A DNA stretch of 64,000 nucleotides from a virus, in the IMG/VR virus record IMGVR_UViG_3300046328_000506, positions 66,172-130,171 of that record. The stretch is one strand, 5' to 3'. Within the stretch, counting starts at the first letter, position 1; every line of letters starts with the position of its first letter. The notes under the pieces are model-generated. The model did no database searches. It was given only the letters and a program-made list of their open reading frames with translations, and was not told the DNA's origin. Below, piece by piece: positions 28,356 to 28,943 of this stretch. The translations under genes were made by a program, and so were the position numbers.

Positions 28356-28943
28356 ATGAAAACTACTCTTTTCGTGGCATTTAGCCACACTCTTACTCAA
28401 AGCCAAATTGACGGCTTTCAAAGTCAATTTTCTACTCAAACTGTTATCAGAGAATTTTCTGATAATGGTGGTATTCCCACTGGTGACGGTGGAGAAGCGT
28501 TTACTGAATTTGTTGATTTCAGTATTGTAAGTCTTGGTGAAGTTGCACCAGAATTACAAGCTCAAATGAGCCAAATTCCTGCAAGAGCTACTTTACAAGA
28601 AGTTCAAGAGCTTGCGAAAAGCATTGTAGCTGAAGCAATCAAAGCTGGTGCAACACATTTTTTCTGTGTTGGTGAACCTACTCTTACAATGTGGGCTAAC
28701 TTATTGATAGAAAGAAAGATGGTGTCAGCAAGACTCACTTACTATGTGTCAGAAGATGGTACAGAAGTAGGGTGGGGTAAAACTTCATCTGTTTTTGTAG
28801 AGGATAGATACAAAGTCGAACATCCTCAAATTACTTGTATTCAATCAACCACTGAACGTCAATCAGTTGAGGAAACTCAACCTGACGGAAGTGTTTTAAA
28901 AAAGGCTATCTTCAACCACGTAATGTGGCGAGAAATGTTTTAG
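28356..28943 (+). CDS. Csx20-like protein (putative cyclic oligoadenylate ring nuclease)
   Basis: FSHTLT..QI, LQAQMSQIP, VGEPTLT and STTERQSVEE..DG..KKAIFNHV.WRE match the recalled Csx20 motif pattern. Confidence 0.7.
   Translation: MKTTLFVAFSHTLTQSQIDGFQSQFSTQTVIREFSDNGGIPTGDGGEAFTEFVDFSIVSLGEVAPELQAQMSQIPARATLQEVQELAKSIVAEAIKAGATHFFCVGEPTLTMWANLLIERKMVSARLTYYVSEDGTEVGWGKTSSVFVEDRYKVEHPQITCIQSTTERQSVEETQPDGSVLKKAIFNHVMWREMF

Follow-up and report, generated by a model that had tools for sequence, protein, structure and literature searches.

A phage-borne, doubly inserted member of the Csx20 family as a candidate viral ring nuclease against type III CRISPR immunity

Csx20, a ring nuclease of type III CRISPR loci, is the closest described counterpart of the viral gene considered here. 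As reported in PMC12409355, purified Csx20 of a type III locus fully degraded cyclic tetra-adenylate (cA4) at a 100-fold excess of substrate, and cyclic tri-adenylate (cA3) when 10-fold more enzyme was used, while in PMC8284326 ring nuclease activity is predicted from conserved His, Arg and Asp/Glu residues. Csx20 is carried by 4 of 28,114 cultured phage genomes (PMC12409355, Hoikkala et al. 2025), and csx20 homologues occur in Aca14-regulated anti-defence operons, where they were proposed to be co-opted for counter-defence (PMC13551039). The use of Csx20 by phages as counter-defence is already in print. The present gene is located at positions 28356–28943 on the plus strand of a window of 64,000 nucleotides, by which we mean the whole stretch of DNA analysed; it corresponds to bases 66172–130171 of the 130,171-base IMG/VR virus record IMGVR_UViG_3300046328_000506, which is classed as linear and estimated to be about 76% complete. 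Particular to this case are the doubly inserted form of the protein, its carrier, a distant crAss-like freshwater phage, and a suggested link between two insertion hot spots and a phage-enriched branch of the family.

The gene was found exactly where the original prediction had placed it. According to the sequence and the list of open reading frames (ORFs), it starts with ATG and encodes 195 amino acids (aa) followed by a stop codon, and it is intact; the open frame as a whole comprises 199 aa and begins just four codons 5′ of the ATG. The same M-K start is seen in the alignment with relatives. All four motifs quoted earlier are present in the product: FSHTLT..QI at aa 9–18, LQAQMSQIP at 67–75, VGEPTLT at 105–111 and STTERQSVEE..DG..KKAIFNHV.WRE at 164–193.

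Two stretches of the protein, split by the insertions, match the NCBIfam model NF040559 (CAS_Csx20) with a joint score of 42.1 bits (E 1e-10), and three PADLOC models for Csx20 or Csx15/20 match it at E 1.3e-9, 4.8e-7 and 5.6e-6. Its precomputed Pfam match is PF27247, a family called MJ1673 by ESM Atlas, and the same precomputed match is carried by 48 of the 51 relatives found in the protein collection at E <= 0.01. PHROGs has no family for the protein, and the only match of a scan with a Pfam copy that lacks PF27247, Zeta_toxin (E 0.021), is below its cut-off and was taken as chance. A profile of 21 clade relatives (A1) was then set against an alignment of 22 canonical Csx20 sequences (A4), 21 of which match NF040559 at E <= 2.7e-19. 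The two were joined by hhalign with a probability of 100% and E 2.6e-41 over 130 aligned columns. When 1.84 billion proteins were searched with the A1 profile, 1,146 cluster representatives were obtained at E <= 0.001, and six of ten distant matches tested are bona fide Csx20 (92–131 bits with NF040559 against a cut-off of 70 bits).

In our alignments, each of the 15 columns conserved to at least 85% in the canonical set is identical in the window protein; these residues are H11, T14, Q17, L67, G106, T165, T166, R168, E172, D177, G178, K182, F186, H188 and R192. Three of them (H11, Q17 and G106) are invariant in all 22 canonical sequences, and across 180 family sequences H11 is retained in 171, Q17 in 174, G106 in 178 and R168 in 168. 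Identity of the protein to the canonical Csx20 profile is only about 27%. Judged by sequence profiles, on which the family assignment rests, its homology to Csx20 is genuine and the likeness far past chance. The reading of the gene as a stand-alone phage member of the Csx20 family is thereby borne out by profile and profile–profile homology, the comparison with Csx20 profiles that had been proposed as a check having given a match.

Three core segments, all on the plus strand, are separated by two insertions. Core segment 1 (aa 1–27, 28356–28436) includes strand 1, helix 1 and the S10-H11-x-L-T-x-x-Q17 motif and is followed by insertion 1 (about aa 28–54, 28437–28517, boundaries approximate), which appears in lower case, i.e., unaligned, in hhalign. 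Core segment 2 (aa 55–119, 28518–28712) is composed of strand 2, helices, strand 3 and the G106-E107-P108 loop. Insertion 2 (about aa 120–156, 28713–28823, boundaries again approximate) is probably flexible. Core segment 3 (aa 157–195, 28824–28940) is a long beta hairpin with Q-S-T-T-E-R, D177-G178, K182, F186-x-H188 and W191-R192, and this is the stretch that matches NF040559 best (profile positions 88–123 of 124). The two insertions, described earlier as apparent, proved to be real in the alignment, in the family comparison and in hhalign. Compared with the short members of 123–124 aa, the window protein is longer by about 27 residues where helix 1 leads to strand 2, and by about 36 where the helix that follows the G-E-P loop leads to the C-terminal beta hairpin. 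The segment at site 1 has 0–5 aa in short members and 32 aa in the window protein, and that at site 2 has about 7 and 43 aa, respectively.

The AlphaFold2 model has a mean predicted local distance difference test score (pLDDT) of 83.5 and a predicted template modelling score of 0.73, the core reaching a pLDDT of 90–98, core segment 2 a value of 90–97 and insertion 1 a value of 65–68. Modelled as a homodimer, the protein scored 0.77 in each of three runs, none of three controls exceeding 0.00; the runs had at least 84% of contacts in common, and the pLDDT of the partner was at least 74. Among solved proteins, 20 of 30 pairs and 1 of 23 single chains reach the mark applied to the dimer, and these counts are a rough guide here, our own alignment having been used. 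The predicted interface is built from residues 73–83, 105–116, 163–168 and 189–195, which are conserved segments, and includes neither insertion, in agreement with the published dimeric models of Csx20 (PMC12409355). It is unlikely that the dimer passed through memory of the Csx20 family, because no Csx20 structure has been solved, though CARF dimers are known. In structure searches, Foldseek found nothing in PDB at E <= 0.001 with either model, VIA-align gave middling, non-discriminating scores with racemase domains the highest, and BFVD yielded one clear viral look-alike, a nameless protein of 128 aa (E 6.3e-7). As far as models allow, these results are consistent with a CARF-like fold without proving it.

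In our opinion, the protein is probably a viral cA4 ring nuclease and, as such, a candidate anti-type III CRISPR protein, because the conserved His, Arg and acidic residues and the modelled dimer built from them are retained. It would be a small Rossmann-like (CARF-like) phage protein of the Csx20/MJ1673 family that forms a symmetric homodimer, in the model through the G-E-P loop, the Q-S-T-T-E-R strand and the C-terminal V-x-W-R-E-M-F strand. By analogy with the family, the dimer would bind cA4 at its two-fold axis and cleave it to linear products. During infection, the cA4 made by host Cas10 would be drained, and effectors such as Csx1, Can1/2, Cam1 and similar proteins would stay off, so that the protein may serve as an enzymatic anti-type III CRISPR with an AcrIII-1-like way of working. 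Homology, residue conservation and the viral setting are direct observations in this argument; we infer the substrate, its cleavage, the timing and the benefit to the phage.

The viral setting is evident from the record itself. Among its largest ORFs, PHROGs families identify a portal protein, a large terminase, ribonucleotide reductase subunits, a DNA polymerase and a DnaB-like helicase. The terminase is closest to those of crAss-like, Flavobacterium and Cellulophaga phages, at just 25–27% identity. The G+C content of the window is 29%, and a Shine-Dalgarno-like motif precedes only 1 of 50 long ORFs; together with the distant crAss-like terminase, these features hint at a Bacteroidota-type host. 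Contigs with near-identical DNA at low depth, belonging to the same phage, were found in freshwater metagenome runs of several studies, along with one variant piece. A single distantly related phage was found through the terminase (23% identity); it is devoid of a Csx20-like gene and too far removed for synteny. Among cultured phages, the window protein and gene had no megablast match, nor was there a tblastn match in 50,697 GenBank phage records, in which short clade members matched only the Fusobacterium phages JD-Fnp4 and JD-Fnp7. Two scans of cellular genome contigs, each with a single peptide pattern, revealed no relative, which is not evidence of absence.

The original prediction had also noted the lack of cas genes and of a CRISPR array in the window. 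TIGR02578 (Csm1/Cas10) has no match in the whole 130-kb record, with Cmr2 and other cas families lying outside that search, and there is no CRISPR-like tandem array in the window, where only short two-copy repeat families at chance level surround the gene. This statement thus stands for the array in the window and, throughout the record, for Csm1/Cas10. The same model matches none of four virus records carrying Csx20-like genes.

The place of the protein within the family was evaluated by FastTree with 184 sequences and 133 columns; the tree is unrooted, many of its forks are unresolved, and relatives of the query are over-represented among the sequences. The canonical side contains 54 rows, including all six verified canonical sequences. 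The other side contains 130 rows, among them the window protein, 12 of 15 sequences scoring below the Csx20 cut-off and, without exception, the eight ORFs of loci whose context could be read. The branch between the two sides has a support of 87 and is not starred. All six other loci with at least 6 kb of context contain phage or mobile-element genes: among the three from IMG/VR records there are a DEAD-box helicase, RecT and a DNA methylase, and the three further loci comprise one with a tape measure protein, a 136-kb contig with a replication initiator, a methyltransferase and a clamp loader, and one with a DnaB-like helicase. Besides the Csx20-like gene, two of the six loci share one weakly similar ORF (about 26% identity) with the window, and four share none. 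The nearest clusters in ESM Atlas are 89–100% viral, their scores of 0.84–0.87 serving as leads only.

The idea of a captured host ring nuclease was not borne out. Because of the identity of about 27% to the canonical profile, the score below the cut-off and the position in a branch whose known contexts are all phage or mobile-element, the gene is best described, as far as sequences and an unrooted tree can tell, as an old viral lineage and not a recent capture. The G+C content of the Csx20-like gene is 38.8% against 30.2 +/- 2.4% for 21 long ORFs, and its third-position G+C is 24%; this excess stems from amino-acid content, and composition so gives no evidence of recent capture. Two of the six loci, both mobile-element contigs, carry two Csx20-like genes each (L003 at 2759–3190 and 7986–8408; L021 at 8659–9039 and 9992–10369). 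The two genes on L021 are sisters in the tree and may have arisen by tandem duplication. Homologues of 220–300 aa also occur (P0050, P0069, P0092, P0053, P0055, P0060, P0057, P0097, P0012 and P0133), and several of them have N-terminal extensions of 60–160 residues, which added domains or mis-called starts may explain. An Acr–Aca fusion with an N-terminal ribbon-helix-helix (RHH) or helix-turn-helix (HTH) domain was considered for these long homologues and dropped, as none of the ten has a relevant Pfam match and P0050 is without a PDB relative.

The insertions are unevenly distributed between the two sides of the tree. On the side of the window protein, 29 of 123 sequences have an insertion of at least 15 aa at site 1, 66 have one at site 2 and 24 have both; on the canonical side, the corresponding counts are 2, 0 and 0 of 54. 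Their sequence and length vary even between proteins about 50% identical in the core. These counts suggest that the phage-enriched branch is recognisable by insertions at two hot spots. Both insertions are at helix-to-strand connections and, as judged from the topology of the model, would face opposite the strand-to-helix loops with S10-H11 and G106-E107-P108; such a placement opposite the loops with conserved residues would explain why their length varies so freely in the branch. A further step would be to regard Csx20/MJ1673 as having a large virus-dominated branch in which hypervariable insertions at two fixed hot spots opposite the catalytic site form a diversifying module, which would extend the substrate range to cA3 or cyclic hexa-adenylate (cA6) beside cA4, allow docking on host effectors or Cas10 complexes, or evade host inhibitors of viral ring nucleases. 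We regard this idea as quite doubtful; as its corollary, cellular Csx20 might be of viral ancestry, in parallel with what has been argued for Crn2/AcrIII-1.

Several points weigh against a cA4 ring nuclease with an anti-CRISPR role. The score of 42.1 bits is below the NCBIfam equivalog cut-off of 70, and so are the scores of all ten clade relatives tested (38.8–64.2 bits), including those of 123–124 aa aligned end to end; this sub-cut-off branch may have diverged in function. Since the protein and all ten of these relatives score below 70 bits, we assign it, on sequence grounds, to the wider family of homologues and do not treat it as an equivalog of CRISPR-associated Csx20. The insertions add about 63 residues without an assigned role, and insertion 2 was modelled with low confidence (pLDDT 45–68, with aa 124–127 and 141–152 below 50). 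Searches of PDB sequences with the clade and canonical profiles found no solved Csx20 relative to anchor the active site. No Aca-like regulator or known acr gene was found near the gene: none of ten neighbouring ORFs (24732–32531) has a Pfam match at E <= 0.01, a search that a short RHH protein can escape. Finally, no activity test of a viral Csx20 was found in the literature searched.

Degradation of another signal, i.e., cA3 or cA6 of type III systems or a cyclic trinucleotide of the type used in cyclic oligonucleotide-based antiphage signalling (CBASS), would direct the protein against something other than cA4-dependent type III CRISPR. The characterised ring nucleases Crn1–3, Csx16 and Csx20 all favour cA4 according to PMC12409355; a later paper describes Crn4 as a broad-spectrum ring nuclease. 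The conserved columns are all unchanged in the window protein, and we hold a different substrate to be unlikely.

Another explanation is that a cyclic oligoadenylate is bound and mainly sequestered, the protein acting as a sponge, or that the protein oligomerises on the ligand. Both ideas are discussed for Csx15, and sequestration is raised in PMC12409355 for that relative with little cleavage. The low scores of the ten tested clade members against the Csx20 equivalog model would agree with it, and the insertions could supply surfaces for higher-order assembly. On the other hand, the conserved polar residues of the active family are kept without exception in the 15 columns, Csx20 itself is a multiple-turnover enzyme (PMC12409355), and insertions conserved neither in sequence nor in length argue against a specific assembly surface. 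Sequestration is therefore quite unlikely in our opinion. A role outside defence signalling, be it regulatory or some other task that involves nucleotide binding, or the status of a neutral passenger is the least probable explanation: the generic Rossmann-like fold with its top-scoring racemase domains, the lack of cas, acr or aca neighbours in the Csm1/Cas10 search and the Pfam scan of ten ORFs, and the terminase-linked phage without the gene speak for it, but the strong retention of Csx20-specific residues over 180 sequences implies that a biochemical site has been kept, the gene is intact with its whole core well aligned, and its spread over unrelated phage backbones in six different contexts is the pattern of accessory counter-defence.

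The reading as a cA4 ring nuclease may also be compared with the described systems. Like canonical Csx20, the protein is homologous over the whole 124-residue core, with the same order of strands and helices and all the conserved columns, and it is a predicted homodimer, dimeric models of Csx20 having been published (PMC12409355). It differs in having 195 and not about 124 aa, in scoring 42 against 70 bits, in belonging to a separate branch and in being phage-encoded, its activity being a prediction. With the csx20 genes of phages and mobile elements already reported in PMC12409355 and PMC13551039, including the csx20–aca14 operon of Pasteurella multocida, it shares a stand-alone position on a mobile element and a proposed role in countering type III CRISPR; in contrast to that operon, no RHH/HTH Aca-like neighbour was found here among the ten ORFs analysed with Pfam. 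AcrIII-1/Crn2 (DUF1874) resembles the protein in its proposed way of working, in which cA4 is destroyed by a small homodimer of viral origin and all cA4-dependent effectors are disarmed at once (PMC12409355, PMC12830947). It belongs to another family, however, no DUF1874 match being found with Pfam at E <= 10, and AcrIII-1 is proven by experiment, whereas the protein described here is assigned by homology. With Crn1 (Sso2081, PDB 7YGH) there is no detectable sequence relation, and the structural score is in the generic range, below racemases.

If the protein is active, phages would have, in addition to AcrIII-1, a second enzymatic means of erasing the type III cA4 signal. The 1,146 cluster representatives and the phage or mobile-element genes at all six context-readable loci strengthen the impression that Csx20-type genes may be far more frequent among uncultured viruses than would be expected from the 4 cultured genomes of 28,114. 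The two insertion hot spots also offer a natural variant set for asking what a ring nuclease tolerates. The gain is incremental, the concept itself having been published.

As to the surroundings, the gene is located about 8.4 kb into an arm on the plus strand, which begins at 19984, contains many small ORFs and precedes replication genes; the placement in an early region, made from gene order alone, is plausible. Directly 5′ of the gene is a non-coding block of 711 bases (27630–28340, plus strand) with no ORF of at least 60 aa. Its folding energy is -173.7 kcal/mol against a mean of -136.1 for 20 shuffles (standard deviation 5.0; z = -7.5), and it may be a large structured RNA. The non-coding block reported upstream of the gene is thus confirmed, with no match in Rfam. 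Further upstream, at about 27420–27625 (plus strand, z -2.9), there is a tRNA-like element whose D-arm-like and T-arm-like ends are about 140 bases apart and whose middle (anticodon) arm is expanded; ARAGORN did not call it, and no Rfam family matches it.

About 320 bases 3′ of the Csx20-like gene, an ORF of 63 aa (29265–29456, plus strand) encodes an extremely acidic, D/E-rich product without a Pfam match, which could, as a guess, be an anti-defence protein of the DNA-mimic type. A twister-P3 ribozyme (RF03154) is found at 30163–30230 (plus strand), just before the ORF at 30252; its score of 49 bits (E 1.6e-7) exceeds the gathering score of 39.9. On the minus strand, 14787–17522 encodes a ribonucleotide reductase large subunit of 911 aa with family matches in aa 3–150 and 593–910, and 17545–19494 encodes a product of 649 aa with a small-subunit match in aa 419–647 and a reductase-like or PhoH-like stretch in aa 91–424. 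The split matches in these two genes may be due to inteins, insertions or fusions.

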